Shown here in pieces: positions 19,017 to 38,368 of a stretch of DNA of 64,000 nucleotides (the stretch's first letter is position 1; each line of letters begins with the position of its first letter). The translations under genes and the position numbers were made by a program. Below the pieces are notes generated by a model, which did not search any database, had not been told where the DNA came from, and saw nothing but the letters and a program-made list of their open reading frames with translations. The DNA is taken from positions 4,854-68,853 of the forward strand of contig JBEQCG010000005.1 in assembly GCA_041639395.1 (NCBI GenBank), given 5' to 3'. This DNA comes from Thiobacillus sp. (GTDB lineage Bacteria > Pseudomonadota > Gammaproteobacteria > Burkholderiales > Thiobacillaceae).

Positions 19017-20492
19017 TCAGCCGATGCGCACCGGCACGAACAGGCGCTGGCCGTTGCGCTGCACCAGCAAGGCGACCGATTTGCCGGCCCCGTCGAGGAT
19101 GCGTTTCACCGTTTCGATACTATCGACCGGCTTGCCATTGACCGACACCAGCACGTCGCCCGGCTGTACGCCGGCGCGCGCAGCGGGGCCGCTGGCGTCT
19201 TCCACCACGAGACCGGATTCCACACCGGTGGCGCGCGATTCTTCCGGCGCGAGCGGACGCAGGGCCAGCCCCAGCCGCGCTTTGTCGAGATCGCGTTTGG
19301 CTTGCTGGGCGCGGGGTTCGGCGAATTTGTCGAGGGTGACGGTGAGCGTCATCGGCTTGCCGTTGCGCCAGACGTCGAGCCGGGCCGGCTTGCCGGGCGC
19401 GGCCTGGCCGACCAGCACCGGCAGCTCGCCGGCGTTGGCGACCGGTTGGCCGTTGAAGCTGCGGATCACGTCGCCGGTTTTCACCCCGGCGCGGTCAGCG
19501 GCGCTGCCTTTTTCCACCTGCGCGACCAGCGCACCTTCGGGCTTGGCGAGCTTGAACGAGTCGGCCAGCGCCTGATCCACTTCCTGGATCGCCACGCCGA
19601 GCCGGCCGTGGGTGGCGTGGCCGGTGGCGACGATCTGATCCTTGATGCGCACCGCAAGATCGATGGGAATCGCGAACGACAAGCCCTGGTAGCCGCCCGA
19701 ACGGCTGAAAATCTGCGAGTTGATGCCGATCACTTCGCCGCGCGAATTGATGAGCGGGCCGCCGGAGTTGCCGGGGTTCACCGCCACGTCGGTCTGGATG
19801 AAGGGCACGTAGCCGTCGTCGGGCAGCGAGCGGCCCTTGGCGCTGACCACGCCGGCGGTGACGCTGTTCTCAAATCCAAAGGGCGAGCCGATGGCGAGCA
19901 CCCATTCGCCCACTTTCAGGTCGGCCGGGTTGCCGAGCGGAACAGTGGGCAGATTTTGCGCGGCTATCTTCAGCACCGCCACGTCGGTCTTGTCGTCGCG
20001 GCCGATCACTTTGGCCTGGAATTCGCGGCGGTCGGTGAGTTTCACCGTCACCGTATTCGCGCCGCGCACCACGTGGGCGTTGGTGAGTATGAGGCCGTCC
20101 GGGCTGACGATGAAGCCCGAGCCTTCGCCGCGCGCGGGTTGGCCGCCGCGCGGGCCTTGTGGTATCGGCAGGCCGTGGCGGCGGAAGAATTGCCACACCG
20201 GATCGTTGGCGTCGGGCGCAGCGCGTGCGCTGTCATCCTCGCTGCCGGCGTTGGCCACGGCGATGTTGACGACCGCAGGGCCAAAGCGTTCGACGATGCC
20301 AGTGAAGTCCGGCGCGCCGGCCAGCGGTGCAGCGAGCGGCGCGCTGGCCGCCGGCGCCACCAGCACGGTGGGCGCGGGCGCGCTGGCGCTGGCGTGGCCG
20401 CCCAGCGTCCAGGCGGCAGCGCCGCCGCCGAGCACGCCGGCGGTGAGAAGCGCAAGAATCAGGCGGGTGGGAGACAGGGCAATCGGGGACAT
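19017..20492 (-). CDS. degQ: HtrA/DegQ periplasmic serine protease with two PDZ domains
   Basis: Intact triad LTNAHVV / KTDVAVL / VNPGNSGGP; N-terminal signal or anchor. Confidence 0.92.
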   Translation of the reverse strand: MSPIALSPTRLILALLTAGVLGGGAAAWTLGGHASASAPAPTVLVAPAASAPLAAPLAGAPDFTGIVERFGPAVVNIAVANAGSEDDSARAAPDANDPVWQFFRRHGLPIPQGPRGGQPARGEGSGFIVSPDGLILTNAHVVRGANTVTVKLTDRREFQAKVIGRDDKTDVAVLKIAAQNLPTVPLGNPADLKVGEWVLAIGSPFGFENSVTAGVVSAKGRSLPDDGYVPFIQTDVAVNPGNSGGPLINSRGEVIGINSQIFSRSGGYQGLSFAIPIDLAVRIKDQIVATGHATHGRLGVAIQEVDQALADSFKLAKPEGALVAQVEKGSAADRAGVKTGDVIRSFNGQPVANAGELPVLVGQAAPGKPARLDVWRNGKPMTLTVTLDKFAEPRAQQAKRDLDKARLGLALRPLAPEESRATGVESGLVVEDASGPAARAGVQPGDVLVSVNGKPVDSIETVKRILDGAGKSVALLVQRNGQRLFVPVRIG

Positions 20493-20581
20493 GGGCTCTC
20501 CATCAAAATGCGTTGAACAGGCGCGGCGTGTGCGGTCGCGTGTCGCTCCGACCGTCCGCCACGCGCGCGGGTTCCTGGGGT

Positions 20582-20725
20582 TTACTTGTCGAACGGAATC
20601 TCGCCGTCGCGCCGGTAGCGGGCGCGCGCCGAGGGCCGGTACACCCACGCGATCACCGCAAGGAGCGCGAGCGGCGGGCCGACCATCCAGCCGTAGTCAC
20701 GCAGGAAAGCGAGCAGGGTATTCAT
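20582..20725 (-). CDS. CcoQ/FixQ-like small membrane protein (47 aa; below ORF-track cutoff)
   Basis: Hand translation MNTLLAFLRDYGWMVGPPLALLAVIAWVYRPSARARYRRDGEIPFDK; starts 3 bp after the upstream stop. Confidence 0.7.
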   Translation of the reverse strand: MNTLLAFLRDYGWMVGPPLALLAVIAWVYRPSARARYRRDGEIPFDK

Positions 20726-20728
20726 GGG

Positions 20729-21103
20729 TCAGTACCACGGCCCGGGCCAGCCGTAAGGCCCGCCGCCGTACCACCAGCCGCCGTCAAAATTCCAGCGGTT
20801 CCAGTCGGCCAGCCGTTCGTCGCGGCGCACGGCCTTGAGGTAGCTCTGCTGCATGGCGTTGATGACCGCGTCGGGCACGCCCTGGTCGCGCAGGTCGGCG
20901 AGCTGGCTGGCGGTGAGGCGGTAGACGGTGTCGGACGCGCGCATTTTGGCGAGGATGGTGTCGGCGGGCACGCCTTCGCGCGCCAGTGCGACGATTTCCG
21001 GCACGGTGACGCGCGGTGGCGGCGGGCTGCCGAGGGTGGCGCAGCCGCCGGCCAGCAGGGCGGGCACGGCGACGAGGGCAAGACGCAGGGTCGAGGGCAT
21101 CAT
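20729..21103 (-). CDS. Predicted lipoprotein (124 aa)
   Basis: GAGGAG RBS, lipobox LAGGC, G/W/Y/P-rich tail. Confidence 0.8.
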   Translation of the reverse strand: MMPSTLRLALVAVPALLAGGCATLGSPPPPRVTVPEIVALAREGVPADTILAKMRASDTVYRLTASQLADLRDQGVPDAVINAMQQSYLKAVRRDERLADWNRWNFDGGWWYGGGPYGWPGPWY

Positions 21104-21114: not shown

Positions 21115-21612
21115 TCAGGCAGCGGCTTCGACGGGTTTCAGCAGCGCGCGCGCGGCGTCGATTTCCGCCTCGGTGCCGTGCACGAACAGCAGGTAGCGGT
21201 CGGCCTTCAGGTCGCGTTCGTACTTGATCGCCTGTTCTTTCGACAGCCCCAGGCCCACCAGGCCTGCGCCCACGGCCGACAGCCCGCCGACCACGGCTGC
21301 GCCTTCGAGCGCGCCCACCAGCGCGGCGGCGAGCGAACCCGCCACCGCCACCGGGCCGATGCCGGGCACAAAGAAGAACGCGCTGCCGAACAACAGCCCC
21401 CACAGGCCGCCCCAGGCCGCGCCGATGCCGCCCCAGGTTTTCATGCGGTCGCCGGTGGTGTAAAAGCCGACGGCGTGTTCTTCGCTTTGATAGCCCTTGC
21501 CGATGATCGACAGGCGCTTAATGTCGAAGCCGCCGCGTTGCAGGGCGCGAATCGCGGTTTCGGCGTCGCTGTGGCGTTCGTAGACGCCGATGACGGAATG
21601 CAGGTCTTTCAT
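21115..21612 (-). CDS. General-stress/DUF1269-like membrane protein
   Basis: AAWGGLWGLLFG..FFVPGIGPVAVAG, AIKYE..LK...LLFVHG pattern; AAGGAG RBS. Confidence 0.75.
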   Translation of the reverse strand: MKDLHSVIGVYERHSDAETAIRALQRGGFDIKRLSIIGKGYQSEEHAVGFYTTGDRMKTWGGIGAAWGGLWGLLFGSAFFFVPGIGPVAVAGSLAAALVGALEGAAVVGGLSAVGAGLVGLGLSKEQAIKYERDLKADRYLLFVHGTEAEIDAARALLKPVEAAA

Positions 21613-21635: not shown

Positions 21636-22130
21636 TCAGTTGAGTGCGTCCGTGGGGGTGAGCTGAACGTCCAGGGCCAGACGCGAACCGGGGTCGTAGG
21701 GAAGAGTGGTGTGGAAAACGTGGCCCCGGTAGCGGTAGGTCACGTCGTAGCCGGCGAGCGTGTTCGACGGCCGGTCGGCCGGCGTGCACCGCGTTTCCCA
21801 GCGCTCGCCGTCGTCGTTGCCGACCTGGCCGCCGATCACGCTGCCGGCCAGCGCGCCCACGGCCCCGGCGGCGACACGTCCGTCGCCGTGGCCAAAGCGC
21901 GAGCCCAAGAGGCCGCCGAGAATGCCGCCAAAAATCTGCCGGCCGGTGGCGTCATAAGGCGTGGCGTTGACCAGCGTCTGGCGACAGACCGGCTGGCGGT
22001 CGATGCGGGTCTGGTAGACCGGCGTGGCCGACAGTACCTCGGCGCTGTCGCCGAAATCGGCCGCCCCGGCCGGCGCGGTGAGGAGGCAGCTTGCGCCGAG
22101 CACGCATGCGGTTTGCAGCAGCGGATTCAT
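21636..22130 (-). CDS. Glycine-zipper 2TM secreted protein (YcfJ-like)
   Basis: Signal peptide; GGILGGLLGSRFGHGDGRVAAGAVGALAGSVIG; GYDVTYRYRG...PG. Confidence 0.82.
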   Translation of the reverse strand: MNPLLQTACVLGASCLLTAPAGAADFGDSAEVLSATPVYQTRIDRQPVCRQTLVNATPYDATGRQIFGGILGGLLGSRFGHGDGRVAAGAVGALAGSVIGGQVGNDDGERWETRCTPADRPSNTLAGYDVTYRYRGHVFHTTLPYDPGSRLALDVQLTPTDALN

Positions 22131-22139: not shown

Positions 22140-22844
22140 CTAGCGCGCGGTGCGCACGACATCGACGCCGTGCACCACTTCAAAAATCGACCCCAGCGCG
22201 CGGTCGATCGCCTGCTGCGCGGCGGCGGGCTGGGCCGGGTTCGCGGCGAGTGCGGCTTGCGCCACGTGGATCTGGTCGGCGACGCGGTTGAGCGGCAGGT
22301 AGACCGTGGTGGCGCGCAGCGCTTCGCCCACTTCTTCGAGCGTGGTGCGCGCGGCGGCGGATTGGCCGACCCGCGCCTGCGACTCGGCGTGCTTCACGCC
22401 GGTTTTTGCCTGGCGGGCGAGCACCGGCGCGTAGGCGTCCATTTCGTCGAGGCTGGCGTAGATGGGCAGCAGATCGTCGTAGAACGCCGTGTTGTCGTCG
22501 GCGACGAGGCGGTTTTTGGCGTTGACGATGGCGTCGTTCACGTCGACAAACGGCATGGTGCGCTGCCAGGCCCCGGCGAATTCGCTCGCCACGCGCAAGG
22601 CGCTCTGCGCCAGTTCGGGCGAATCGGCCACCAGGAAGGCGCGCGCCGAGCGCAACTGCTCGACCAGCGCGCGGCCCGACGCGGCAGCGGCGCGCGCGAG
22701 CTGGGGCGAGGCCCAGCCGGCGTCGGCGTCCACGCTCTGGATGTCGGTGAGCGGGGCGGGTGCGGCCAGCGCCGGGCCGGCGAATACGGGCAACAGCGCA
22801 ACGGCGAGTACGGTGCGGCGGAGGGGGCGGGAAAGATGCAACAT
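22140..22844 (-). CDS. Secreted helical protein, YfdX-like
   Basis: Signal peptide; DLLPIYASLDEMD matches DLVPLYASLDAIE of the divergent gene. Confidence 0.65.
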   Translation of the reverse strand: MLHLSRPLRRTVLAVALLPVFAGPALAAPAPLTDIQSVDADAGWASPQLARAAAASGRALVEQLRSARAFLVADSPELAQSALRVASEFAGAWQRTMPFVDVNDAIVNAKNRLVADDNTAFYDDLLPIYASLDEMDAYAPVLARQAKTGVKHAESQARVGQSAAARTTLEEVGEALRATTVYLPLNRVADQIHVAQAALAANPAQPAAAQQAIDRALGSIFEVVHGVDVVRTAR

Positions 22845-22900: not shown

Positions 22901-22916
22901 AGCGGGCTTCGTGCCA
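22901..22916 (-). promoter_or_regulatory. sigma54 -24/-12 promoter of the leftward operon
   Basis: TGGCAC-GAAGC-CCGCT with GG-N10-GC spacing; IHF-like ATTCAACAACTTG at 22923-22935. Confidence 0.62.
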
Positions 22917-22990: not shown

Positions 22991-23055
22991 CGGGGGAAAA
23001 CCCCCGGTCACCGGAGTGGGGGCTTTGCGCCAGCCGGGCCGGGGCATTTCCCCCG
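22991..23055. promoter_or_regulatory. Putative enhancer (UAS) array
   Basis: CGGGGGAAAACCCCCG (22991), weak TGGGGGCTTTGCGCCA (23017), CGGGGCATTTCCCCCG (23040). Confidence 0.6.
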
Positions 23056-23107: not shown

Positions 23108-23123
23108 TGGCACAGCGCCTGCA
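23108..23123 (+). promoter_or_regulatory. sigma54 -24/-12 promoter of yfdX-HK-RR-cyo
   Basis: TGGCAC-AGCGC-CTGCA, correct spacing, about 45 bp before ATG 23169. Confidence 0.7.
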
Positions 23124-23168: not shown

Positions 23169-24443
23169 ATGAACCGTCCGTCCACCCCGCTCGTGCTTGC
23201 CCTGTCCGTTTTTCTCAGCGGCGGGGCGCTGGCGGCCAACCCGCCCGCCCGCATCCTCGAAAACCAGCAGATCGTGCCGCTGCGCACGATCAGCGCCGCC
23301 GACCAGGCCGCACTCTCGCGCGCCGCGATGAAAACGCTCAACCACATCGGCGAGGCGCGTGCCGCGCTCGCCCGCAAGGACGCCGGCACCGCGCGCGCCA
23401 ACCTGCGCCAGGCCGACACTCTGCTCGACATCATCCAGGCGGGTCTGCCCACCGCGCAGGTGCGCGACCAGATCCGGGTGGCCGAAAGCAAGCTCAAACT
23501 GCAATACCAGGACACCAAAGTGGTCGAGCCCGACCTCGTGCCCCTCTACGCCTCGCTCGACGCGATCGAGGACTTTGCCGCCGTGCCGCAGGCGCGCGCC
23601 CACCTCGACCAGGCGCAGGCCAAACTCAAGACCGGCGACAAATCCGGTGCCGCGCAGGAACTGCAAGCGATGGACGCTGCCTTGCTCTACCAGGAAGCCG
23701 ACCTGCCGTTGGCGGCCACGCGCGGTTTTGTGCGCGCGGCCGAAAGCGAACTCGCGCGCGGCAACCTCAAGCTCGCCGACGAACATCTGCGCGCGGCGGA
23801 AGACAACGTGGTGACCTACACCGCCTTTGTCGACGAACCCATCGTCGCCGCCCGCGCCAACCTCGCCCGCGCGCAGCGCAACTACGTCGCCGGCCGGCTC
23901 GACGCCGCCCGCGCCGACCTCGGCCGCGCCGTCACGCAGCTCGACCGTGCTGTCGCCCGCGCCGACGGCGCGGTGAAACAGGACGTGAGCGCGCTCGCGC
24001 AGGATGCCCGTGCACTCGGCGGCAAGCTCGACGCCAGCGCCCACGCCGACGCCCGCGATACCAGCCGCGACCTCTCGCTGCTGTGGCATCGCACCCGCGC
24101 GCTGGCCGACCGCAGCATGGATTACACCGCCGTCGGCTGGAAACGCCTGAGCGTGCACAATCCGGTCGAGCAGCACCTGATCGAGGCGCGCCTGCACGCG
24201 CGCTACGCCGAGATCGACGCCGGGATCGGCAACAACCCGGCGCGCGCCGCCACCGACCTGGCGGAAACCTGGCGCTATCTGGAAGAAGCGCGCGGCACGC
24301 CCGGCATCGCGCCGCACACGCGGCAGACGGTCGAAGCGCTGATGAAACAGCTCGACGCGCTGCGCCAGCCCGGCAGCACGCCGGATGCCGCCGCGCTCGC
24401 CGGGCTGCAAAGCAGCATCGCCGGTGCGCTGCGCAGCCTGTAA
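23169..24443 (+). CDS. Secreted YfdX-family protein with C-terminal helical extension (424 aa)
   Basis: AAGGAG RBS, signal peptide, HIGEARAALARKD...ANLRQA and DLPLAATR segments resembling YfdX from recall. Confidence 0.7.
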   Translation: MNRPSTPLVLALSVFLSGGALAANPPARILENQQIVPLRTISAADQAALSRAAMKTLNHIGEARAALARKDAGTARANLRQADTLLDIIQAGLPTAQVRDQIRVAESKLKLQYQDTKVVEPDLVPLYASLDAIEDFAAVPQARAHLDQAQAKLKTGDKSGAAQELQAMDAALLYQEADLPLAATRGFVRAAESELARGNLKLADEHLRAAEDNVVTYTAFVDEPIVAARANLARAQRNYVAGRLDAARADLGRAVTQLDRAVARADGAVKQDVSALAQDARALGGKLDASAHADARDTSRDLSLLWHRTRALADRSMDYTAVGWKRLSVHNPVEQHLIEARLHARYAEIDAGIGNNPARAATDLAETWRYLEEARGTPGIAPHTRQTVEALMKQLDALRQPGSTPDAAALAGLQSSIAGALRSL

Positions 24444-24485: not shown

Positions 24486-25916
24486 ATGAAACGCATCTTC
24501 GTGCGCTCGCTGGCCTTTCCCGCGCTCGTTGCCGCCGGGCTGGTCGCGCTGGCGGTGGCGTTTGCGCTGGTGTCGCTGGCGCGCAATCTCGGGCAGTTCG
24601 AGCCGCTGCGCGCGCACACCGCCGCCATGCAGCGGGTGCAGGCGCAGAGTTTGGCCATGCAGTACGCGCTGGCGCGCACGCTGTCGCCCGACGCCCCCGT
24701 CGATCACGCCGTGTTCAGGCGGCTGCGCGACGAAGTCGACAGCCTCGTCGCCGACCCCGCGCTGCTCTCGCCGCAGGGGCAGGCGCGGCTCGAACGCGCG
24801 CGGGTGCTGCTCGACCAGCCGGGCAACGATCCGCGCGCGCAACTGCTCGCCGCCACCACCTTGCTGCACGAGGCGCTGGCCGACGAGAGCCGCGCGCACG
24901 ACGCCCTGCTCGCCAAGGTGGCGGCGCAGGCGCGCTTCGAATTCCAGCTGGTGGCGGCGGCGTTTGCCCTGCTGCTGCTCGCCGGCGCGGTGGCCTGGGT
25001 GGGCGTGCGTCGTCGCGTGCTCGAACCACTGCGCGATCTGGACGCCTGGATGGGACGGCTCGCACAGCATGATTTTTCGCGCATCGAGGCCCGTCGCGCC
25101 GACAGCCTGATTGCGCCGCTGTTTGCGCGCTACAACGCCATGGTCGAGCGGCTGGCCGAGCTCGAAGCCGCGCAGGCCGCGCGCGAAGCCAGCCTCGAAG
25201 CCGAAGTGCGCAGCGCTACCCGCGAACTCATCGCGCACAACCGCAGCCTGGCCGAAGCCGAAAAACTCGCCGCCGTCGGCGAACTCGCCGCGAGCCTCGC
25301 GCACGAACTGCGCAATCCGCTCGCCGGCATCACGCTCGCGCTTTCCAATCTCCAGCACGACCTGGCCGACCCGGCCGCGCGCGAGCGGCTCGCCGCCGTG
25401 CTCGCCGAGCTCACCCGGCTGGCGCGATTGATGAACCGTCTGCTCGACGCGGCGCGTCACGCGCCCGAAGCCGCGCAGCGCGTGCATCTGGCGCGTGCGG
25501 TCGAAGAAGTGGCGGCGCTGGCGCGCTACCAGATCGCGCCCGACATCCGGCTAGACGTGGACATCGACGTCGCCTGCCAGTGCCTGTTGCCGCCCGACCG
25601 CCTGCGCCAGGCCGTGCTCAACCTGCTGCTGAACGCCGCGCAGGCGCTGTCGGGACACGGCCGCATCCGTGTCGTCGGCCGGCGCGAACACGACACCGTC
25701 GAGCTGGCAGTGGAAGACGACGGCCCCGGCTTTCCCGAGGCGATGCTGCGCGACGGCGTGACCGCGTTTGCCAGCCACCGCGACGGCGGCACCGGGCTCG
25801 GGCTCGCGTCGGTGCGCCGTTTCGCGCAGGACCACGGCGGCCGCTTTGCGCTGGCCAATCTGAGCCCGCACGGCGCGCGCGTGTCGCTTTTTCTGCCTTG
25901 CCCCGAGCCTGCCTGA
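24486..25916 (+). CDS. Membrane sensor histidine kinase (2 TM, HAMP)
   Basis: AHELRNPLAGI H-box, NLLLNA N-box, DDGPG and GGTGLGL G-boxes. Confidence 0.93.
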   Translation: MKRIFVRSLAFPALVAAGLVALAVAFALVSLARNLGQFEPLRAHTAAMQRVQAQSLAMQYALARTLSPDAPVDHAVFRRLRDEVDSLVADPALLSPQGQARLERARVLLDQPGNDPRAQLLAATTLLHEALADESRAHDALLAKVAAQARFEFQLVAAAFALLLLAGAVAWVGVRRRVLEPLRDLDAWMGRLAQHDFSRIEARRADSLIAPLFARYNAMVERLAELEAAQAAREASLEAEVRSATRELIAHNRSLAEAEKLAAVGELAASLAHELRNPLAGITLALSNLQHDLADPAARERLAAVLAELTRLARLMNRLLDAARHAPEAAQRVHLARAVEEVAALARYQIAPDIRLDVDIDVACQCLLPPDRLRQAVLNLLLNAAQALSGHGRIRVVGRREHDTVELAVEDDGPGFPEAMLRDGVTAFASHRDGGTGLGLASVRRFAQDHGGRFALANLSPHGARVSLFLPCPEPA

Positions 25917-25918
25917 CC

Positions 25919-27295
25919 ATGCCGCACACGCTCCTCATCATCGAAGACGAAACCCTGCTCGGTCAGGAACTGCAACGCCATTTCCAGCGCGAAGGCTGGG
26001 ACGCGCGGCTCGCCAGCACGCTGGCCGAAGCACGCCGGCTGCTGTTCGATGAAGCGATCGAACCGTCGGCTGTGCTCTCCGACATGAACCTGCCCGACGG
26101 CAACGCGCTCGACCTGCTGGAGGCCGCGCGCGAAGCGGGGCTGGCGGGCGAATGGGTGTTCGTCACCGGCTACGGCGGCGTGCCCGATTCGGTGCGCGCG
26201 CTCAAATTGGGCGCGCTCGACTTTCTGGAAAAACCGGTCGATATGGCGCGGCTCGCGCTGGTGCTGAACGGCGCGGCGCGCAGCGCACGCGCCGAGCGGC
26301 GGCTGGCCGACCACACCGCCGGCGAAGGCCGGCGTTTCACGCCCGAAGCCTACGCCGGCGAATCGGCCGCCGCGCGCGAGGCGCGCGACATGCTGGCGCG
26401 GCTCGCCGGGGTGCCGTTTTCGGCGCTGTTGATCGGCGGCGAAACCGGCACCGGAAAGGGGCTCGCCGCGCGCATCCTGCATTACGCCGGGGCCCGCCGG
26501 CGCGGCCCGCTGGTCGAAGTGAACTGCGCCGCGCTGCCGCGCGAACTCATCGAAGGCGAACTCTTCGGCCACGAAGCCGGCGCGTTCACCGGTGCCAAGG
26601 GGGCGCGGCGCGGCCTGGTCGAACAGGCGCACGGCGGCACCTTGTTCCTCGACGAAATCGGCGAGCTGCCGCTGGATTTGCAGGCCAAACTGCTGCGCGT
26701 GATCGAGGACAGCCAGATCCGCCGTCTGGGCGGCGAACGCGCCGTGCCGGTGGACGTGCGCTTTGTCGCCGCGAGTAACCGCGACCTCGAAGCCGAGGCG
26801 CGCAACGGCGGCTTCCGCGCCGATCTCTATCACCGGCTGTCGGTGTTTCGCCTGGTGCTGCCGCCGCTGCGTGCGCGGCGCGAGGACATCCGTCAGCTGG
26901 TGCCGCTGTTCGTGCGCGAATTCAACGCCAAGGCCGGCAAGCGCGTGAGCCGCATTGGCGAGCCGGTGTGGTCGCAACTGCTCGCGCACGACTGGCCGGG
27001 CAACGTGCGCGAACTCCGCAACGTGGTCGAACGCTGCGTACTGTTCGCCGACGGCGAGGACTTTCCCGCGCGCTGGCTGCAACTGTCGGCCGCGCCGGCG
27101 TCGCCCGCGCCCGCCGGCGACGGCGTGTGGCTGCCGCTCGACGGCAGCCAGAGCCTGGAAGACATGGAACGCCAGCTGGTCGAAGCCGCGCTGGCGCAGG
27201 CCGGCGGCAACGTCACGGGGGCTGCGCGCCTCTTGAAAAGCACGCGCGAAACCCTGCGCTACCGGGTGGAGAAATTCGGCCTGGGCAAGGGCTGA
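25919..27295 (+). CDS. sigma54-dependent response regulator (NtrC/AtoC class)
   Basis: Receiver EDE..SDMNLPD..KP; GETGTGK, GAFTGA, LDEIG; Fis-type HTH. Confidence 0.95.
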   Translation: MPHTLLIIEDETLLGQELQRHFQREGWDARLASTLAEARRLLFDEAIEPSAVLSDMNLPDGNALDLLEAAREAGLAGEWVFVTGYGGVPDSVRALKLGALDFLEKPVDMARLALVLNGAARSARAERRLADHTAGEGRRFTPEAYAGESAAAREARDMLARLAGVPFSALLIGGETGTGKGLAARILHYAGARRRGPLVEVNCAALPRELIEGELFGHEAGAFTGAKGARRGLVEQAHGGTLFLDEIGELPLDLQAKLLRVIEDSQIRRLGGERAVPVDVRFVAASNRDLEAEARNGGFRADLYHRLSVFRLVLPPLRARREDIRQLVPLFVREFNAKAGKRVSRIGEPVWSQLLAHDWPGNVRELRNVVERCVLFADGEDFPARWLQLSAAPASPAPAGDGVWLPLDGSQSLEDMERQLVEAALAQAGGNVTGAARLLKSTRETLRYRVEKFGLGKG

Positions 27296-30741: not shown

Positions 30742-31028
30742 CGCGCACGCAACTGGCCGCCGGATTCGCGCTTGCCGTGGGCCTCACGGTGCTGCCCTTC
30801 GCGGCGGTCATGGGCGGCGCGCTGTCGCGCGAATCGCTGCTGGCGCTGATCGCCGGCAGCGGACTGTTCCAGGTGGTGGTGCACCTGCGGCTGTTTCTCG
30901 ACCTGCGCAGCGGCGGGCGCGGCACCGCGCGCGTGCTCGCCACCGTATTCGGCGTGCTGCTGATGGCGATCATGCTGGTGGGCACGCTGTGGGTGATGCG
31001 CGATCTGCACCTGCGCATGATGCTGTAA
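30738..31028 (+). CDS. cyoD: Ubiquinol oxidase subunit IV
   Basis: QVVVHLRLFL, GTLWVM; ATGA overlap with cyoC. Confidence 0.9.
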   Translation: MTRTQLAAGFALAVGLTVLPFAAVMGGALSRESLLALIAGSGLFQVVVHLRLFLDLRSGGRGTARVLATVFGVLLMAIMLVGTLWVMRDLHLRMML

Positions 31029-31042: not shown

Positions 31043-32344
31043 TCAGGCGTGGCCCTCGATGGGGTTGCCGTAGAGCGGGCGCGTGCCGGCGCGGGTGCCG
31101 ACCACGTAGGCAATGCCGGCGGCGAGCATCACCGGCACCGCCAGCGCGTATTGCCCGGTCATTTCCAGCACCATCACGATAGCCATCAGGGGTGCCTGCG
31201 TGGCCGCCGCCAGCGCCGCCGCCATGCCGATCACCGCCGTGGCGGCGGGCGTGCCCACCCATTCGACTGGCAACACGCCGAGCGCGGTGTCGCCGAGCAG
31301 AAAACCGCCGGCGGCCCCGATGAACAGCGTGGGCGTGAACAGGCCGCCGACCGCGCCCGAGCCCGCGCTCGCCAGCGTCGCCAGAAACTTGATCGCCAGC
31401 ACCAGGAGCAGCCATTCGGCCAGCACACCACCGTGCAGCACGCGCGACACCGTGCTGAAGCCGTTGCCCCACACCTCGGGCGCGAGCGCGGCGAGAATGC
31501 CCGCCACCAGCCCGCCCGCCGCCAGCCGCGCGGGCAGCGGGCCGATATGCGCGAAGGCGCGGCGGCTCGCCGCCACCGCATGCAGCAGCGCTGCACCGAG
31601 CGCGCCGCAGAGCAGTCCGGCGACGGCGGCGAACAGCAGGCTGCCGCTGTCGGCCTGGATCGACGGCATGGCGTAGAGCGGCTGCGACAGCCCCAGTCCG
31701 TGGATCAGCACGCTGGACGCCGCCACCGCGATCAGCACCGGGGCCACGGTGTGGCGCGCCATGAATCCCAGCGCGAGTTCGAGCACGAAAATCACCCCGG
31801 CGATGGGCGCGTGATACGCCGCGCCGATACCCGACGCGATGCCGCACACCAGCAGCGCGTTGCGCTGTTCGGGGGCCAGCCGCACCGCGCGCCCGAGCAC
31901 CACCGCTGCCCACGCGGCGAGCTGCACCATCGGCCCTTCGCGTCCGACCGACGCGCCGCTCACCACCGACACCAGCGACGAGGCGCTGCGCGCGAGCGTG
32001 GTGCGGTCGTTGAGCTCGGCCTCGCCGGCGCGCGCAGCGTCGATGTAGTCGATATGCTTTTCGCCGCGCGGGCCGCGTGCCGCCCAGCGCGCGCCCAGCC
32101 AGAGCACGCCGCCGGCGATGAGCCCGCCGGCCGCGCCGATGACGATGCGCAGCCACGGCGGCAGCGCGGCCGCAGCGGCGACCAGTCCCGCGTCCTGCGA
32201 ACTCAGCCACCACTCGCCCACACCGATCAGCGTGCGAAACGCCGAGGTGACGCTGGCCGCGAGCAAGCCCGCCACGGCGGCCCACAGCCAGAACAGGGCG
32301 GCGGGCGCGGGCGGGGTGCGGGGGGCGGTGTCGGACGCGGGCAT
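31043..32344 (-). CDS. clcB: ClC-family chloride channel, ClcB-like
   Basis: GREGP, GGLFTP, PLY motifs; multi-TM. Confidence 0.82.
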   Translation of the reverse strand: MPASDTAPRTPPAPAALFWLWAAVAGLLAASVTSAFRTLIGVGEWWLSSQDAGLVAAAAALPPWLRIVIGAAGGLIAGGVLWLGARWAARGPRGEKHIDYIDAARAGEAELNDRTTLARSASSLVSVVSGASVGREGPMVQLAAWAAVVLGRAVRLAPEQRNALLVCGIASGIGAAYHAPIAGVIFVLELALGFMARHTVAPVLIAVAASSVLIHGLGLSQPLYAMPSIQADSGSLLFAAVAGLLCGALGAALLHAVAASRRAFAHIGPLPARLAAGGLVAGILAALAPEVWGNGFSTVSRVLHGGVLAEWLLLVLAIKFLATLASAGSGAVGGLFTPTLFIGAAGGFLLGDTALGVLPVEWVGTPAATAVIGMAAALAAATQAPLMAIVMVLEMTGQYALAVPVMLAAGIAYVVGTRAGTRPLYGNPIEGHA

Positions 32345-32413: not shown

Positions 32414-33085
32414 ATGAAATTCCTGCTACCCCTGCCGCATCACGAACTGCACCCGCTGGCCCGCCTGCGTGCCTGGCATCGCCTGCTTGCGGCGGGGTTG
32501 GCGGGCTTGATGACCGGCGCGGCGATGGCCGGCGCGCTGTGGGAGACGCGACTGCTCGGCGGCTGGCTCGCCGCCGCGCTGGTGTATCTCGTCGTCGCCT
32601 GGTGGGGCGTGGGCCGGCTCGACGCGGCGCACACCCGGCTGCGCGCGTCGAGCTTCGACCCCGGCGTGGCGGCGCTGGTCGCGCTGGTCGTCGCGGCGTC
32701 GTGGGTGAGCCTGGTCGGCGTGCTGCTGGTCACCCACGCCGCGCGCCAGTTCGACGGGCTTGCGCGCTGGGGCCACATCGGGCTGGCGTTCGCCGCGCTG
32801 GCGGCGACCTGGCTGTTGATCCAGACGGTGTTCGCACTGCATTACGCGCGCCGCTACTACCGCGAGGATCGCGGCGGGCTGGTGTTTCCCGGCACCACCG
32901 CGCCCACCTACCTCGACTTCGCCTACTTCGCGGCGGTGATCGGCATGACCTCGCAGGTCGCCGACGTCGGCATCGCGCGGCCTGCGTTGCGCAGGCTGGT
33001 GCTGGCGCACGGGCTGATTTCTTTTGCCTTCAATCTGATGGTGCTGGCGCTGGTGCTCAATCTGGTGGCCGGCGCGCTGGGCTGA
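32414..33085 (+). CDS. DUF1345-family membrane protein
   Basis: FALHYARRYY, P.YLDFAYFA..IGMTSQVADV, AHGLISF.FN. Confidence 0.88.
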   Translation: MKFLLPLPHHELHPLARLRAWHRLLAAGLAGLMTGAAMAGALWETRLLGGWLAAALVYLVVAWWGVGRLDAAHTRLRASSFDPGVAALVALVVAASWVSLVGVLLVTHAARQFDGLARWGHIGLAFAALAATWLLIQTVFALHYARRYYREDRGGLVFPGTTAPTYLDFAYFAAVIGMTSQVADVGIARPALRRLVLAHGLISFAFNLMVLALVLNLVAGALG

Positions 33086-33117: not shown

Positions 33118-33222
33118 CGGGGCATACGCGCCAATCGAAACGGGGGATATCCCCCGATTGCTGGCGCTTCCCAGAATAATCCAAGCTGAATCAATCGGTT
33201 GCGATCTGGCACACAGCCTGCT
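33118..33222 (+). promoter_or_regulatory. UAS + IHF site + sigma54 promoter of the sqr operon
   Basis: CGGGGGATATCCCCCG (33141-33156); AATCAATCGGTTG exact IHF consensus (33189-33201); TGGCAC-ACAGC-CTGCT (33207-33222). Confidence 0.75.
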
Positions 33223-33266: not shown

Positions 33267-34565
33267 ATGACCCCACAAATTCCCTCGTCCCGTCCGCACG
33301 TTGTCGTGCTGGGCGGCAATTTTGCCGGCTTTGGCGCGGCGCAGAAAATCCGTGAATTCGCCGGCGACGCGGTGCGCATCACCGTGGTGGATCGCAAGTC
33401 GCGCCTGCTCTACGTGCCCAATATTCCGCTCGAAGTGTTCGAGAACCGCAACCCGGCGGCGAGCCTGTTCATGGACATCGTCAAGCCGCTGGCCGACGAC
33501 GGCATCGACTTTGTGCGCGCCGAGGTGAACGCCATCGACCCGGTGGCCTCGACGGTGACGTGGACGCCCGACGAGCGTCCCGGCGCGGCGAGCGAAACCC
33601 ACGGCTACGACTATCTGGTGGTGGCGCTGGGCAACCGGCTGGCGTTCGACCGCATCGAGGGCTACGCCGAACACGGCCACAGCCTCACCGACACGGTGCA
33701 GGGCGAAAAGCTGCGCCGCTACCTGCACGAAGACTATCGCGGCGGGCCGATTGCCATCGGCTCGGCGCGCTTTCACCAGGGCGACGGCGCACGCGGGCTG
33801 GAACCCTACCCGCACGGTTCGATTCCCTACGCGCTGGCCGCCTGCGAAGGCCCGCCGGTGGAGGTGATGCTGTCGATGGCCGACTGGCTGAAGCGGCACA
33901 AACAGGGCGGCCCGGACAAGGTCACCGTGTTCACGCCGGGCGAATTGATCGCCGAGGACGCGGGGGTGCAGGTGGTCGATCAGCTGCTCGGTATCGCCGG
34001 CAAGATGGGCTTCCACTATCTCAACAAGGTCGGTGACATCGAACGCCTCACTGCGCACGGCGTCGAGTTTGCCGATGGCCGCAGCGTCGAGGCCGAACTC
34101 AAGATCGTGTTCCCCGACTGGCGCGCGCACGAATTCCTGCGCGGCCTGCCGATTGCCGACAGCGAAGGTTTCATCGTCACCGATCTCACCATGCGCAACC
34201 CGGCGTTCCCGAACGTGTTTGCGGTGGGCGACTGCGCAGCGGTGACGGTGCCCAAGCTCGGTGCCATCGGTCACCAGCAGGCCGAGATCGTCGGCCGCCG
34301 GCTCGCGCACGAACTCGGCCGGCTGGACGACCCCGGCGAGCCGCTCGCACCGGTGGTGTACTGCATCGGCGACATGGGTAGCGGCCAGGCGTTTTACATC
34401 CGCTCCAACAGCTGGTTCGGCGGCGACACCCAGGTGCTGAAAATGGGCCGCGTGCCGCATCTCTTGAAGATGCACTACAAGACGATGTTCTACGAACGCC
34501 ACGGCAAGGTGCCGGCCTGGGGGCTGGATGCCGCCGAGCTGCTGGCGGAAAAAGTGTTTGCCTGA
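33267..34565 (+). CDS. sqr: Sulfide:quinone oxidoreductase (type V/SqrE-like)
   Basis: VVVLGGNFAG FAD fold, ACEGP and YCIGDMG cysteine pair, AVGD..VPKLG. Confidence 0.78.
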   Translation: MTPQIPSSRPHVVVLGGNFAGFGAAQKIREFAGDAVRITVVDRKSRLLYVPNIPLEVFENRNPAASLFMDIVKPLADDGIDFVRAEVNAIDPVASTVTWTPDERPGAASETHGYDYLVVALGNRLAFDRIEGYAEHGHSLTDTVQGEKLRRYLHEDYRGGPIAIGSARFHQGDGARGLEPYPHGSIPYALAACEGPPVEVMLSMADWLKRHKQGGPDKVTVFTPGELIAEDAGVQVVDQLLGIAGKMGFHYLNKVGDIERLTAHGVEFADGRSVEAELKIVFPDWRAHEFLRGLPIADSEGFIVTDLTMRNPAFPNVFAVGDCAAVTVPKLGAIGHQQAEIVGRRLAHELGRLDDPGEPLAPVVYCIGDMGSGQAFYIRSNSWFGGDTQVLKMGRVPHLLKMHYKTMFYERHGKVPAWGLDAAELLAEKVFA

Positions 34566-34710
34566 CGCAGCCCGTGCTGCGCGTTGTTACCCAACGGGTA
34601 GGGCGACTGGATGCGCCGGATCATGGAACGCCCTACCCGTTTCCCTCACCCCGGCCCTCTCCCGCAAGCGGGAGAGGGGGACGCAGCCAACGCTGCGCGT
34701 TGTTACCCAA
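34564..34710. repeat. Composite palindromic element: 31-bp direct repeats flanking two hairpins
   Basis: 34564-34594 vs 34680-34710 (28/31); GTAGGGCG/CGCCCTAC IR; CCCTCTCCCGC-AA-GCGGGAGAGGG hairpin. Confidence 0.65.
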
Positions 34711-34727
34711 ACGAGAAGGAGACAGAC

Positions 34728-34943
34728 ATGGCCAATGCCCTGCAACGGGAAGCGATCCCGACCCTCAACGCCGGAGGTGATTTCGCCTCGGTCGTGCTGC
34801 GCGTGCTGCTCGGCGCGGCGATGCTGTTGTGGCTCGCCGCCGGCATGTTCGTGTGGACGGCGCTCGCGCTGTTCACCCTGCTGCTGGCGACGCTGCGCCT
34901 GCCCTTCGTGCTGCTGGGGCGCCTGATGGCGCGTCGGCCATGA
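34728..34943 (+). CDS. Small membrane protein (71 aa)
   Basis: AAGGAG RBS, long hydrophobic stretch, ATGA overlap with emrA. Confidence 0.7.
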   Translation: MANALQREAIPTLNAGGDFASVVLRVLLGAAMLLWLAAGMFVWTALALFTLLLATLRLPFVLLGRLMARRP

Positions 34944-35932
34944 CGCGGGGGCGCATCGTGGCGATCGCGCTGGTGTGCTCTGCGGTGGCGCTGGCGGGTG
35001 GCGCGGCCTGGTGGCGCGTGGCCAGCCGCGAGGTGTCGACCAGCGACGCCTACGTCGGCGCGCAGGTGGTGCAGATCGCGCCGCAGATCGGCGGGCGGGT
35101 GAATTCGGTCGCGGTGTGGGAAGGCCAGTCGGTGAAGCGCGGCGACGTGCTGTTCCGCATCGACCCGGCCCCCTACGAACTGGCGCTCGACGCCGCGCGC
35201 GCGCGGCTTACCCAGGCGCGCGAAGGCGCGCGCGCCGGGCAGGCGGCGGTGGGCGCGGCGCGCGCCGAAGTGCAGGCACAGGCGCAAACCGCGCACAACG
35301 CCGAATCGCTCGCGGCGCGCGACACCGCGCTGGTGGCACGCGGCTTTCTCTCACCGCAGGCCGGCGAAACGGTCGACGCCCAGGCCGCCGCGGCGCGCGC
35401 GGCCACCCGCGCCGCGCGCGAACGCGAAGCGCAGGCGGTGGCCGCCGCCGGCGCGGCGGGGCGCGACAACGCCGGCATTCGCGCGGCCGAGGCGGCGCTC
35501 GCGCAGGCGCAGCTCGATCTGGCGCACACCGTGGTGCGCGCGCCGGCCGACGGGCGCATCAGCCAGTTGACGTTGCGGCCCGGAGCCATGGTCGAGGCCA
35601 GCACGCCGCTGTTCGCGCTGGTCGATTCGAGCCGCTACTGGGTCGATGCCAACTTCAAGGAAACCGATCTGGCGCAGATCCGCAGCGGGCAGCGCGCCAG
35701 GGTCACGCTCGACATGCAGCCCGGCCAGGTGTACCGGGGGTCGGTGATCGCCATCGGTGCCGGGGCGGGCAGCGCGTTTTCGCTGCTGCCGCCAGAAAAC
35801 GCCAGCGGCAACTGGGTGAAGGTGACGCAGCGGGTGCCGGTGCGCATCCTGCTCGACGGCGTCGAAGCGGGTGCACTGCCGGCGGTGGGTGCCAGCGCAA
35901 CCGCCACGGTGATGCTTGGCCATGACGGCTGA
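34940..35932 (+). CDS. emrA: EmrA/HlyD-family membrane fusion protein
   Basis: STSDAYV, APQIGGRV, VDANFKET, PPENASGNWVKVTQRVPVRI. Confidence 0.9.
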   Translation: MTRGRIVAIALVCSAVALAGGAAWWRVASREVSTSDAYVGAQVVQIAPQIGGRVNSVAVWEGQSVKRGDVLFRIDPAPYELALDAARARLTQAREGARAGQAAVGAARAEVQAQAQTAHNAESLAARDTALVARGFLSPQAGETVDAQAAAARAATRAAREREAQAVAAAGAAGRDNAGIRAAEAALAQAQLDLAHTVVRAPADGRISQLTLRPGAMVEASTPLFALVDSSRYWVDANFKETDLAQIRSGQRARVTLDMQPGQVYRGSVIAIGAGAGSAFSLLPPENASGNWVKVTQRVPVRILLDGVEAGALPAVGASATATVMLGHDG

Positions 35933-37457
35933 ATCCGGCCGCACCGAACCCAACCGCGCGCTCATCATCCTCGCGGTGATGAGCGCCGCCGTGCTGGTGG
36001 TGCTCGACATGACCATCGTCAACGTGGCGATGCCGCACATGGCGGGCGCGCTGGGGGCCAGTCAGGAAGAAATCAGCTGGGTGCTCACCAGCTATCTGGT
36101 GGCGTCCGCCGTGTTCATGCCGCTCACCGGGTTTCTGGTCGACCGTTACGGCCAGCGCCGCGTGCTGCTGGTGTCGATAGCCGGCTTCGTGACCGCCTCG
36201 GCGGCCTGCGGGCTGGCGCAGAATCTTTCGACCATGCTGATTTTTCGTGGCTTGCAAGGCCTATTCGGGGCCTCGCTGGTGCCGCTGTCGCAGGCCATCC
36301 TCACCGCCGTCACGCCGCCCGAACAGCGTGGCCGCGCGATGGCGCTGTGGGGCATGGGCGTGATGCTGGGGCCGGTGCTGGGCCCCACGCTCGGCGGCTG
36401 GCTCACCGAAACTTTCGACTGGCGCTGGATTTTCTACATCAACCTGCCGGTGGGGCTGATGGCGCTGGCGATCGGTGCGCGCGCGGTGCCCGAATCGGCG
36501 CGCATCGCGCGCGTGCTCGACTGGCGCGGTCTGGCGCTGGCGTCGGTGGCGATTGCCGCGCTGCAATTCGCGCTCGACCGGGGCAACACCGACGGCTGGC
36601 TGGGGTCGCCCGTCATCGTCGGCTGTTTCGTGCTGTCAGCCACGGCTTTCGTCGCCTTTCTGGCGTATGCGCTGACGACCAAACGGCATCCGGTGTTCGA
36701 CCTCCACGTCTTCGCCGACCGCAATTTCGCCACCGCGTCGGCGATCATCGGCGTGCTGGGCCTCGGCATGTTCGGCGCGCTGGCGGTGCAGCCGGTGATG
36801 CTCGAAACCCTGCTCGGTTACCCCGCGCTTACCGCCGGCGAAGTGATGGCCCCGCGCGGGCTGGCGAGCCTGTTGGCGATGGTCGTCGCCGGTCGCCTGA
36901 TTGGCCGCGTCGATACGCGCTGGATCGTCGGCAGCGGCATGCTGCTTGCGGCCGCCGGCAGCTACGCCATGGCCGGACTCACGCTCGATCTGTCGCCCTG
37001 GCAGGCGGTGTGGCCGGGCCTGCTGCAAGGCGCGGGCATGGGGCTGATGATGGTGCCGCTGTCGGCGCTTGCGCTGTCCACGCTCAAGCCTGCGATGCAG
37101 GCCGAGGCGGCGGGCATTTTCAGCTTGGTGCGCACGCTTGGTTCGTCGGTGGGCATCGCCGTCGTCGCCAGCGTAGTGAGCCGGCAGACGCAGACCATGT
37201 GGCAGCAGCTCGGCGCGCACGTCGATCCCTACAACCCGGCGCTTGGCACCTGGCTGGAACGCCTGCACGCCACCCCGCACGACCCGCAGGCGATGGCGGT
37301 CGTCACCGCCGAACTCGCGCGCCAGGCGTCGATGCAGGGCGTGCTCGACGCCTACGCGCTGATCGCCTGGAGTTTCCTCGCCATGCTGCCGCTGCTGGGC
37401 TTCCTGCACGGCGGCAAGGTGGCGCGTCCCCAGGCTGCGCCGGCGGAGGCGGGGTGA
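35922..37457 (+). CDS. emrB: DHA2 MFS transporter, EmrB-like
   Basis: LDMTIVNVAMP, WVLTSYLV, GPVLGPTLGGWLT, WRWIFYINLPVG. Confidence 0.9.
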   Translation: MTAESGRTEPNRALIILAVMSAAVLVVLDMTIVNVAMPHMAGALGASQEEISWVLTSYLVASAVFMPLTGFLVDRYGQRRVLLVSIAGFVTASAACGLAQNLSTMLIFRGLQGLFGASLVPLSQAILTAVTPPEQRGRAMALWGMGVMLGPVLGPTLGGWLTETFDWRWIFYINLPVGLMALAIGARAVPESARIARVLDWRGLALASVAIAALQFALDRGNTDGWLGSPVIVGCFVLSATAFVAFLAYALTTKRHPVFDLHVFADRNFATASAIIGVLGLGMFGALAVQPVMLETLLGYPALTAGEVMAPRGLASLLAMVVAGRLIGRVDTRWIVGSGMLLAAAGSYAMAGLTLDLSPWQAVWPGLLQGAGMGLMMVPLSALALSTLKPAMQAEAAGIFSLVRTLGSSVGIAVVASVVSRQTQTMWQQLGAHVDPYNPALGTWLERLHATPHDPQAMAVVTAELARQASMQGVLDAYALIAWSFLAMLPLLGFLHGGKVARPQAAPAEAG

Positions 37458-38368
37458 AGCCGCCCCTTTGGCAGGCCGTCGCAGCCTTGCTTGTCATTGC
37501 CGTTGCGCTGCTGGGGTGGCATCGCAGCAGCGACACGGTGCCGGCCGGCGCGCCGGCCGTGCCGTCGGCGCAGGCGGTTCAGCGCGCTGCGGCGGCACAG
37601 GTACGCGTCGAAGCGCCGGGCGGCGTCGGCAGCGGGCTGCGTCTCGACGACAGCGGCGACGTGCTGGCCGCAGCCGGCGTGCTTGGCGGCGCGGGTACGG
37701 TGAACGTGCGCGACGCGCTCGGCGTGCAGCATCGCGCGCAGGTGCGCGGCGTCGATCGGGTGACCGGGCTGGCGCTGCTGGAAACCGCCGCGCTTGCGGG
37801 CGGGCCGCTGGACTTCGACGCGGTGGAAACGCTCCGCGCCGGGCAGGCGGTCTACGCGCTCGGGGCGGACACGACCTCGCGCGGGCAGGTGACGCAGGCC
37901 GCCAGTACGCTGGCTGGCGCGGCCGACGTGGCGGTGATCGTCACCGACGCCCGCGCCTGTCCGCAAGACGCCGGCGGCGCACTGGCCGACGCCGCCGGGC
38001 GCATCGTCGGCGTGCTGCTGCCGCTGCCGCGCTGCGGCCACGCCATTGCGCTGCCGCTCGCCGCCGCGCACCGGCTGGCGGCGCAACTCAAAACCGGCGG
38101 CCACGCCCGGCGCGGCTGGATCGGCGTCACCGTGGCAGACACCGCCGGCGGCGTGCGCATCGAGTCGGTTGTGCCGGACAGCCCTGCCGCGCAAGCCGGC
38201 CTGCGCGTCGGCGATACGGTGATCGCGTGCGACGGGGCGCTGCCGCGTGCCGCAGGATTTGCCCCGCGCGTGGCGGCGATGCCGCCCGGCCACGATGCCG
38301 CACTGACCATCCGGCGCGACGGCCATGTCCTGGGTGTGACCGTCATCGTGGCGGAGGCGCCGGCGTAG
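37454..38368 (+). CDS. HtrA/DegS-like trypsin-fold + PDZ protein, catalytic triad absent
   Basis: GTG start overlapping emrB stop; TM anchor, GSG motif, RRGWIGV PDZ; triad positions read LAAAGVL, VTGLALL, QDAGG. Confidence 0.75.
   Translation: MKPPLWQAVAALLVIAVALLGWHRSSDTVPAGAPAVPSAQAVQRAAAAQVRVEAPGGVGSGLRLDDSGDVLAAAGVLGGAGTVNVRDALGVQHRAQVRGVDRVTGLALLETAALAGGPLDFDAVETLRAGQAVYALGADTTSRGQVTQAASTLAGAADVAVIVTDARACPQDAGGALADAAGRIVGVLLPLPRCGHAIALPLAAAHRLAAQLKTGGHARRGWIGVTVADTAGGVRIESVVPDSPAAQAGLRVGDTVIACDGALPRAAGFAPRVAAMPPGHDAALTIRRDGHVLGVTVIVAEAPA

Follow-up and report, generated by a model that had tools for sequence, protein, structure and literature searches.

Positions 19,017 to 38,368 of a 64,000-nucleotide stretch of a Thiobacillus sp. 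contig (JBEQCG010000005.1; the whole stretch is called the window here) carry a block of genes that is best read as a sigma-54-dependent, Zra/Cpx-like stress module whose hallmark is a long YfdX protein, and not as a dedicated, conserved sulfide-to-oxygen system, which an earlier note had proposed. We put the probability that the block represents, in local form, a two-component envelope-stress regulon of this kind, as yet uncharacterised and with modular cargo, at about 0.58. The note held that its proposal would fail if YfdX, the two-component system, cyo, sulfide:quinone oxidoreductase (SQR) and EmrAB were not conserved together. A neighbourhood search found the full set nowhere else among ~90 loci (cyoABCD and ClC in none of them, SQR in three and EmrAB in two), so the proposal does not hold on the note's own terms. 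The block is one local, partly very recent composition of a conserved module.

Co-regulation of the three units within this genome is well supported at the sequence level, and control by the local two-component system appears the most economical reading because the units have sigma-54 promoters and one dyad in common, the regulator lies in an apparently autoregulated operon, and cyoA starts 17 nt past the regulator stop codon with no promoter-like element between. The switch with positive autoregulation that the earlier note described is thus supported at the sequence level, by the shared promoters and dyads and by the place of the regulator in its own operon; its assignment to a dedicated sulfide-to-oxygen system is not supported.

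Conserved core of the module

As G+C content across the window is 64-72%, genes were chosen by third-position G+C and afterwards by family searches (Pfam/NCBIfam), which recovered every gene named in the earlier note, with ClC and DUF1345 lying between the units as it had placed them (Table 1). All window proteins were mapped onto the ~90 loci, drawn from genomes and metagenomes in a census anchored on YfdX2, the long YfdX; orthologous kinase-regulator pairs without YfdX2 fall outside this sample. Family-level counts refer to 151 genomes and close-relative counts to 41. The DUF1345-sqr and regulator-cyoA junctions are both spanned by contigs of independent metagenomes, one ~0.5% divergent, and the gene order is therefore not an assembly artefact.

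The plus-strand unit (23169 to 31028) encodes YfdX2, a sensor histidine kinase, an NtrC-type regulator and cyoABCD. YfdX2 belongs to a family of proteins of ~420-430 aa that is the hallmark of the module. Its structure model is all-helical (pLDDT 75.7), and crystal structures of YfdX match the N-terminal half only; helical-bundle matches of the model (SMBP, NiSOD and FliS) were set aside as not informative. The regulator has the receiver, the AAA+ domain with GAFTGA (residue 221) and the Fis-type helix-turn-helix of NtrB/NtrC-type sigma-54 two-component systems, and rpoN is present in the genome (an RpoN box ORF on contig C8).

The long YfdX is accessory, being found in 3/41 close relatives and 13/151 family genomes, and all taxa that carry it are sulfur-cycle organisms. 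The triad of YfdX2, kinase and regulator occurs in Hydrogenophilales and at many loci of gammaproteobacterial sulfur oxidisers (Endothiovibrio and many metagenome-assembled genomes (MAGs)). Regulators encoded beside YfdX2 are 58-90% identical to this one (58-74% in the gammaproteobacterial sulfur oxidisers), as against 30-45% for paralogues in its own genome (best 44.5%), and are taken as orthologues for that reason. A literature search returned no paper linking YfdX with sigma-54, RpoN, NtrC or sulfur oxidisers, and the switch of kinase, sigma-54 activator and periplasmic YfdX is apparently undescribed.

The kinase sensor is a helical periplasmic domain of ~120 aa between the two transmembrane helices. 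In 24 kinase orthologues from two proteobacterial lineages, P..H after the first helix and E...H..L before the second are invariant (window positions 24486-25000); these histidines and the glutamate are compatible with proton or metal sensing, neither of which is proven. A system responding narrowly to pH or metals, whether through a zinc sensor of the ZraSR type or through acid-sensing histidines, and with YfdX, ClC, bo3 and EmrAB as an acid- or metal-resistance set suited to mine drainage, would accommodate these residues, the adjacent ZIP transporter, the presence of the organism in mine-drainage and sediment metagenomes and the induction of enterobacterial YfdX by acid (PMC6394985). We nevertheless consider it very unlikely. 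Of the named families, ZraS and ZraR score among the better ones, but at 120.3 bits against a cut-off of 479 and 273.9 against 760 the similarity is far from equivalog level; family searches detected no ZraP-type partner, the adjacent secreted proteins belonging to the YfdX family and to no other family detected; the family comparison shows no conserved cluster of His or Cys in YfdX2; ClC occurs in this genome alone; and the ZIP gene has no sigma-54 promoter in the window scan.

Sigma-54 promoters and a shared dyad

Each of the three units is headed by a sigma-54 -24/-12 element, as the earlier note had reported: TGGCACGAAGCCCGC before the minus-strand unit (22844 to 19017, six genes), TGGCACAGCGCCTGC before yfdX2 and TGGCACACAGCCTGC before the third unit (33267 to 38368), each with a start codon 45-60 nt downstream. 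A 14-bp dyad, GGGGNAWWTNCCCC, derived from window sites and orthologous regions, lies upstream of each promoter and is usually paired, with centres 22-23 bp apart. Two dyads are common to the two divergent promoters, and their motif recurs upstream of orthologous promoters elsewhere, including loci outside the building of the matrix; those of the sqr unit align with GGCGCATTTGCGCC and GGTTGATATCCCCC ahead of sqr in loci L018 and L027. At the sequence level, three -24 GG/-12 GC promoters with upstream dyads in a genome with rpoN are what sigma-54 targets would present.

Could these elements be chance matches in a region of 70% G+C, with the genes adjacent but under no common control? The loose sigma-54 pattern gives 74 matches over the window where 103 are expected, that is, no enrichment, and palindromes of the form GGGGG-N4-CCCCC with ≤1 mismatch total 4 in 64 kb, not above the 5.7 expected by chance. 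Support for the promoters comes from position and orthologous conservation (~20 other loci), because the loose pattern is not enriched. Three of the four palindromes fall in the two promoter regions, which make up ~0.8% of the window; the sites are intergenic and at a fixed distance from start codons; and Thiobacillus-type loci and Endothiovibrio have promoters and dyads at the orthologous places ahead of yfdX2, yflT/htrA and sqr, the promoter ahead of yfdX2 being conserved in both Hydrogenophilales and Gammaproteobacteria. Since the dyad matrix was built by hand, it was checked on five independent loci from other genera outside its building, where 13/18 matches lay 30-230 bp upstream of sigma-54-like promoters (~2 expected by chance), these promoters heading HSP20, G6PD, yflT, htrA and yfdX2. 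Chance adjacency is accordingly a highly improbable account of the block.

Across the 3.6-Mb genome, 54 dyad sites score ≥13.5, and only three loci have such dyads 30-220 bp ahead of a sigma-54-like promoter of the TGGCA(C/T) type: both promoter regions of the block and, on contig C3, pgi-glk. At C6:62706 there is a fourth pairing, with a weaker TGGAAC element. At C3:~102975-103100, the sigma-54-like promoter TGGCATAGCCGTTGC and two dyad-like sites 22 bp apart stand upstream of pgi and the glucokinase gene, a single hit that makes pgi-glk a possible extra regulon member, in line with the G6PD and GH15 cargo found elsewhere.

Modular cargo

HtrA and YflT are constant in Thiobacillus-type loci. 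Elsewhere the cargo comprises G6PD, a GH15 glucan hydrolase, HSP20, a DedA/VTT protein, rhomboid, DUF202, PPK2 or SOD, so that the cargo common across taxa consists of proteostasis and carbohydrate genes (HtrA, YflT, HSP20, rhomboid, G6PD and GH15) and not of sulfur genes. SQR is found in three close relatives only; just two have EmrAB together with the small membrane protein and the dead HtrA.

The carbohydrate genes would also suit a regulon of energy or redox state, in which starvation or an over-reduced quinone pool calls up the use of storage glucan, quinol oxidases and protective proteins in a dormancy-like response. Outside proteostasis, no neighbours are as frequent across genera as G6PD and GH15, and in locus L113 G6PD is served by a sigma-54 promoter and dyad of its own. 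PPK2 and SOD occur in some loci, pgi-glk is preceded by the site described above, and quinol oxidases were recruited twice (see below). Yet the kinase sensor is periplasmic, with no PAS or quinone-sensing cytoplasmic domain, the hallmark protein YfdX2 is secreted, and the pgi-glk site is a single unverified match. The GH15 gene adjoining the block, although a frequent neighbour elsewhere, was rejected as a regulon member here, as neither promoter nor dyad precedes it in the window. We regard control by energy state as unlikely.

Recruitment of quinol oxidases

The window aligns with relatives up to the regulator stop and again from the first sqr dyad; in between, ~5.8 kb (cyoABCD, ClC and DUF1345) stands where relatives have ~30 bp. 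The oxidase is of the bo3 type, with four subunits in order, a CyoB-type subunit I and a subunit II without CuA ligands (no CuA cysteines, no CxExC). No cyoE was found within the cyo cluster, to which the search for a heme O synthase was confined. cyoB is present in 6/151 family genomes and YfdX2 in 13/151, the overlap being this genome alone. The family copies of CyoB are 58-64% identical and are located elsewhere in their genomes, and a search of 5.8 billion proteins returned a 99% metagenomic twin and otherwise ≤70% identity, mostly to alphaproteobacterial proteins. Inheritance of cyo within the family was rejected on these identities and locations. The lineage has evidently gained a foreign bo3 operon, set behind the regulator, as judged from relatives without the insert, the distance of the family copies and the best CyoB matches of ≤70%.

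In a gammaproteobacterial clade (loci L032, L069 and L088), cydAB lies inside the module operon behind the conserved sigma-54 promoter, in the order yfdX2, yfdX, cydA, cydB, kinase, regulator. A quinol oxidase has thus joined the module operon twice, independently, bo3 here and bd in a separate clade.

Acquisition of a candidate SQR

The first gene of the third unit is a candidate type V SQR. Its best solved relative is the Acidianus ambivalens SQR (3H8I/3H8L), which it resembles in the FAD fold and over nearly its full length (residues 11-408), with GGxFxG, ACEGP, VxC(I/V)xD and both redox cysteines conserved; it differs in that the covalent-FAD cysteine (YSVCEP) is replaced (HSLTDT), the host is bacterial and the activity is predicted from sequence. 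Pfam gives the flavoprotein fold only, and NCBIfam matches are weak. SQR-like orthologues follow the regulator directly in three relatives, with conserved promoter and dyads, and an 83-aa remnant at the same place in a Thiobacillus MAG (L019:14208-14459) indicates that this cargo gene was lost there.

The pseudoprotease that closes the unit has lost the His-Asp-Ser triad of HtrA/DegS proteases, the residues being replaced by Gly, Gly and Ala, and the dead HtrA of the earlier note is thereby confirmed. It arose in situ and has been kept, because its orthologue at L018:18400-19320 (55% identity) is likewise dead and the syntenic gene beside the ZIP transporter at L020:15130-16245 is an intact single-PDZ HtrA.

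Elsewhere in this genome (C3:240785-243509), a PAS-sigma-54 activator of canonical FisR-like type stands back to back with a type-I-like SQR gene that has a TGGCATGGCTGTTGC promoter and GTCATGAC-type repeats, the second sigma-54 SQR of the genome and separately controlled; sulfide-specific sigma-54 control is therefore already in place outside the block. No same-genus genome other than G137 was found to have cyo. There cyoABCD stops 60 bp short of a FisR-like PAS-sigma-54 activator (L058, G137:C6, 10855-17681), and transcribed divergently from the activator are a small ORF and a type-I-like SQR whose TGGCAC-N5-TTGC promoter is perfect, an independent cyo-sqr adjacency.

These observations bear on the possibility that the block serves dedicated sulfide detoxification and respiration, with the kinase sensing sulfide or reactive sulfur species, SQR and bo3 forming a chain and the envelope genes repairing damage. 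Four genomes, this one included, have an SQR-like gene with a sigma-54 promoter and dyads of its own immediately behind the regulator, and a fifth has the remnant; cyo is fused to the operon here and abuts a sigma-54-controlled SQR in G137; the carriers of long YfdX are all sulfur-cycle taxa; and the model accepted for Acidithiobacillus has electrons pass from SQR by way of quinol to bo3/bd (PMC6335251). On the other side, SQR is in no module locus outside one Thiobacillus subclade and cyo in no other locus, YfdX2 and cyoB overlap in this genome only, the direct regulon members elsewhere are HSP20, G6PD, HtrA and YflT, and the genome has the separate FisR-like activator with its type-I-like SQR. 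Micromolar sulfide, moreover, inhibits E. coli bo3 and not bd. A dedicated sulfide system is improbable on this balance. Of the SQR-to-bo3 chain in the earlier note, the components have support, in that the SQR candidate keeps its redox cysteines, an oxidase was recruited twice and cyo and sqr adjoin in G137; the set is not conserved, however, and a FisR-like activator with another SQR lies elsewhere in the genome.

Comparison with known systems

Among the closest parallels to the proposed envelope-stress module is ZraPSR of E. coli and Salmonella, which likewise joins a periplasmic accessory protein or chaperone, a kinase and an NtrC-type sigma-54 activator, with divergent sigma-54 promoters and autoregulation. 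Here, however, the accessory protein is a 424-aa YfdX and not ZraP, the regulon is larger and lineage-variable, and no zinc link is shown.

In the EvgAS regulon of E. coli, to which the earlier note had drawn a parallel, YfdX and an EmrAB/EmrKY-type MFS pump are also co-controlled by a two-component system (PMC6339873). The functional likeness stands, but EvgA is a NarL-family sigma-70 activator and EvgAS is without sigma-54, long YfdX, oxidase or SQR. The regulator of the block is NtrC-type, and a simple sigma-70 scan of the block found no consensus promoter. The resemblance is convergent.

The locus of heat resistance (tLST) of Enterobacteria and Pseudomonas also combines two YfdX paralogues with DegP/HtrA and small heat-shock proteins (PMC8067161), and HSP20 is module cargo in other genomes. 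Unlike that locus, the block has no ClpK/ClpG, HdeD, Trx, KefB or PsiE, the YfdX pair and HtrA being the only shared components in 19-38.4 kb. A search of 72,556 plasmids with YfdX2 gave one weak partial YfdX-family match (30% identity over 24%), which argues against direct kinship. We know of no sigma-54 or two-component control of the locus of heat resistance.

FisR-sqr and TspSR-sox are similar in that a gene for the oxidation of sulfide or thiosulfate is under a sigma-54 activator acting through a palindromic upstream site (PMC6335251), and both this genome and G137 have FisR-like activators with SQR. As a one-component PAS/Cys sensor, however, FisR differs from the regulator here, which has a receiver and a cognate kinase and so is not of the FisR type; the TspR site TGTCCCAAATGGGACA is unlike the dyad found here; and outside this subclade the module regulon consists mainly of proteostasis genes.

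Proposed mechanism and its weight

The core of the proposed regulon would consist of the secreted YfdX2, the kinase with its small helical periplasmic sensor, the NtrC-type activator and, usually, the FixQ-like 47-aa protein. An envelope or periplasmic signal would lead the kinase to phosphorylate the activator, presumably at Asp55, and the activator would bind the paired dyads ~65-140 bp upstream and open the sigma-54 promoters, among them that of yfdX2, kinase and regulator, giving positive autoregulation. By analogy with ZraP/ZraSR and CpxP/CpxAR, YfdX2 may act as a periplasmic chaperone and possibly as a co-sensor; enterobacterial YfdX proteins are described as periplasmic and chaperone-like (PMC4941729 and PMC6339873, as quoted in PMC8067161). 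The cargo depends on the lineage, with genes for periplasmic protein quality control (HtrA, YflT, short YfdX and the glycine-zipper protein) common in Thiobacillus and G6PD, GH15, HSP20, rhomboid and DedA in other lineages. Here the regulon has also captured the type V SQR with the EmrAB pump and the pseudo-HtrA and, uniquely, the foreign bo3 operon, so that induction would add a bc1-independent quinol-to-O2 route, which electrons from SQR could use, on top of the stress response.

Several observations weigh against this account. Several YfdX2 genes have no kinase or regulator nearby. A fold search with the YfdX2 model gave nothing at E ≤ 0.001 and no significant match beyond the YfdX domain, and the co-sensor role is drawn from analogy. 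The dyad matrix was built by hand from hand-picked sites, with a genome score threshold of 13.5, and in the cydAB clade it scores poorly, half-sites alone being evident. No sigma-54 promoter was seen for ClC or DUF1345, and their membership in the regulon is thus unsupported. A metatranscriptome run (X18) holds exact short contigs in htrA, yflT, yfdX2, kinase, regulator and cyoA; none crosses a junction and one lies over the promoter region itself, so these short sequences are compatible with DNA carry-over, and the run was not used as evidence. A stronger version, in which YfdX2, the FixQ-like peptide, kinase and activator form an undescribed and widely conserved envelope-stress signalling module of sulfur-cycle Proteobacteria with YfdX2 as co-sensor, with respiratory rewiring and an SQR-to-O2 path here, is advanced tentatively, as we hold it rather doubtful in full.

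Other features of the window

The coordinates of the block are listed in Table 1. The REP/MITE-like repeat between sqr and the small membrane protein gene is flanked by a 20-bp direct repeat and has at least 10 partial copies in the genome; it is absent from the closest relative, L018, where the gap is 17 bp, and could attenuate or stabilise the sqr-emrAB transcript. A terminator scan gave mostly noise, except for one hairpin at the htrA stop.

The region 16000-40000 has a G+C content of 0.69-0.72, whereas most flanks are at 0.64-0.67 (one 2-kb bin, 6-8 kb, reaches up to 0.71). Relatives share the syntenic frame HPP-GH15 ... ZIP-LysR, which despite the raised G+C suits a long-standing accessory region better than an island of recent date. 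Farther along, sigma-54-type promoters stand at 55505-55519 (TGGCACAGACCCTGC), before an assimilatory nitrate reductase-like gene, and at 59472-59486 (TGGCACAATGTTTGC, perfect), before nirB; both are probably NtrC-controlled and unrelated to the block.

Table 1. Genes and regulatory elements at positions 19,017-38,368 of the window, with supporting matches and occurrence in related loci.
Feature	Position	Strand	Evidence	Related loci
HtrA/DegQ-type (Do-family) serine protease, two PDZ; last gene of unit	19017..20492	-	TIGR02037 487 bits, Trypsin_2, PDZ; catalytic H/D/S present	73-81% identical in all Thiobacillus-type loci
FixQ/CcoQ-like membrane protein, 47 aa	20582..20725	-	PF05545 28.3 bits, slightly below cut-off 29	Nearly all Thiobacillus-type loci, inside the HtrA unit; between yfdX2 and kinase in other genera (L113, L115, L117)
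Small lipoprotein	20729..21103	-	Signal peptide, LAGGC lipobox; no family matched in Pfam search	75-79% in L019-L021
YflT/DUF1269-like general-stress membrane protein	21115..21612	-	PF11181 31.2 bits	73-83% identical; yflT heads the sigma-54 unit in relatives without yfdX1
Glycine-zipper (Rick_17kDa/SlyB-like) protein, signal peptide	21636..22130	-	PF05433 32.3 bits	Restricted to closest relatives L017/L018
yfdX1, short YfdX paralogue, 234 aa, signal peptide; first gene of unit	22140..22844	-	PF10938 E 1.6e-12	82-85% identical in L017/L018
Sigma-54 promoter, yfdX1-htrA unit	22902..22916	-	TGGCACGAAGCCCGC	Identical, same place, in G021 and L018
Enhancer-type dyad, divergent promoters	22992..23005	.	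GGGGGAAAACCCCC	
Enhancer-type dyad, divergent promoters	23041..23054	.	GGGGCATTTCCCCC	
Sigma-54 promoter, yfdX2-kinase-regulator-cyoABCD unit	23108..23122	+	TGGCACAGCGCCTGC	
yfdX2, long YfdX, 424 aa: signal peptide, YfdX domain, helical C-terminal extension	23169..24443	+	PF10938 82.8 bits	
Sensor histidine kinase: two transmembrane helices, HAMP-like linker, HisKA, HATPase	24486..25916	+	Pfam	
NtrC-type response regulator/sigma-54 enhancer-binding protein	25919..27295	+	Response_reg, Sigma54_activat 204.6 bits, HTH_8	
cyoABCD, bo3-type quinol oxidase	27313..31028	+	CyoA, CyoB families, COX3, COX4_pro	
cyoA	27313..28200	+	TIGR01433 263.5 bits, just below equivalog cut-off 266.2	
cyoB	28178..30139	+	TIGR02843 946.7 bits, just below equivalog cut-off 1020	
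cyoC	30136..30741	+	COX3	
cyoD	30738..31028	+	COX4_pro	
ClcB-like ClC channel/antiporter, convergent with cyoD	31043..32344	-	PF00654 249.6 bits, NF002505 377.7 bits	Absent from all related loci
DUF1345 membrane protein	32414..33085	+	PF07077 183.3 bits	67% orthologue 3.5 kb past regulator in L019
Enhancer-type dyad, sqr unit	33119..33132	.	GGGGCATACGCGCC	
Enhancer-type dyad, sqr unit, 23 bp from the preceding one	33142..33155	.	GGGGGATATCCCCC	
Sigma-54 promoter, sqr unit	33207..33221	+	TGGCACACAGCCTGC	Conserved in G021, L018, L008/L027
Type V-like SQR candidate	33267..34565	+	3H8I/3H8L, E 6.9e-51	79-91% in three relatives
REP/MITE-like repeat, ~100 bp, GC-rich hairpin	34593..34689 (within 34573-34709)	.		
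Membrane protein, 71 aa, start/stop-coupled to emrA	34728..34943	+	Translation	50-55%, L017/L018 only
EmrA-like adaptor	34940..35932	+	TIGR00998 242.6 bits	L017/L018 only
EmrB-like DHA2 MFS efflux permease	35916..37457	+	TIGR00711 429.5 bits	L017/L018 only
Membrane-anchored HtrA-fold pseudoprotease, one PDZ, overlaps emrB stop	37454..38368	+	Trypsin_2 41 bits, PDZ_2 42.2 bits	

Implications

YfdX proteins are widespread and have no established molecular function; the long YfdX described here is tied to a specific kinase and a sigma-54 activator, and the predicted binding motif, being readable, would offer a handle on the role of YfdX and make the regulon predictable from sequence. The cargo appears to have been gained stepwise: SQR was added and was lost in one relative, a protease decayed, and a bo3 operon was spliced behind the regulator. 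If the stronger version above is true, envelope damage would be coupled to respiratory rewiring, and in this Thiobacillus lineage stress would induce a path that leads from sulfide to O2 without bc1. Some Thiobacillus populations are predicted to possess a quinol oxidase and a second SQR that are induced by stress and not by sulfide.

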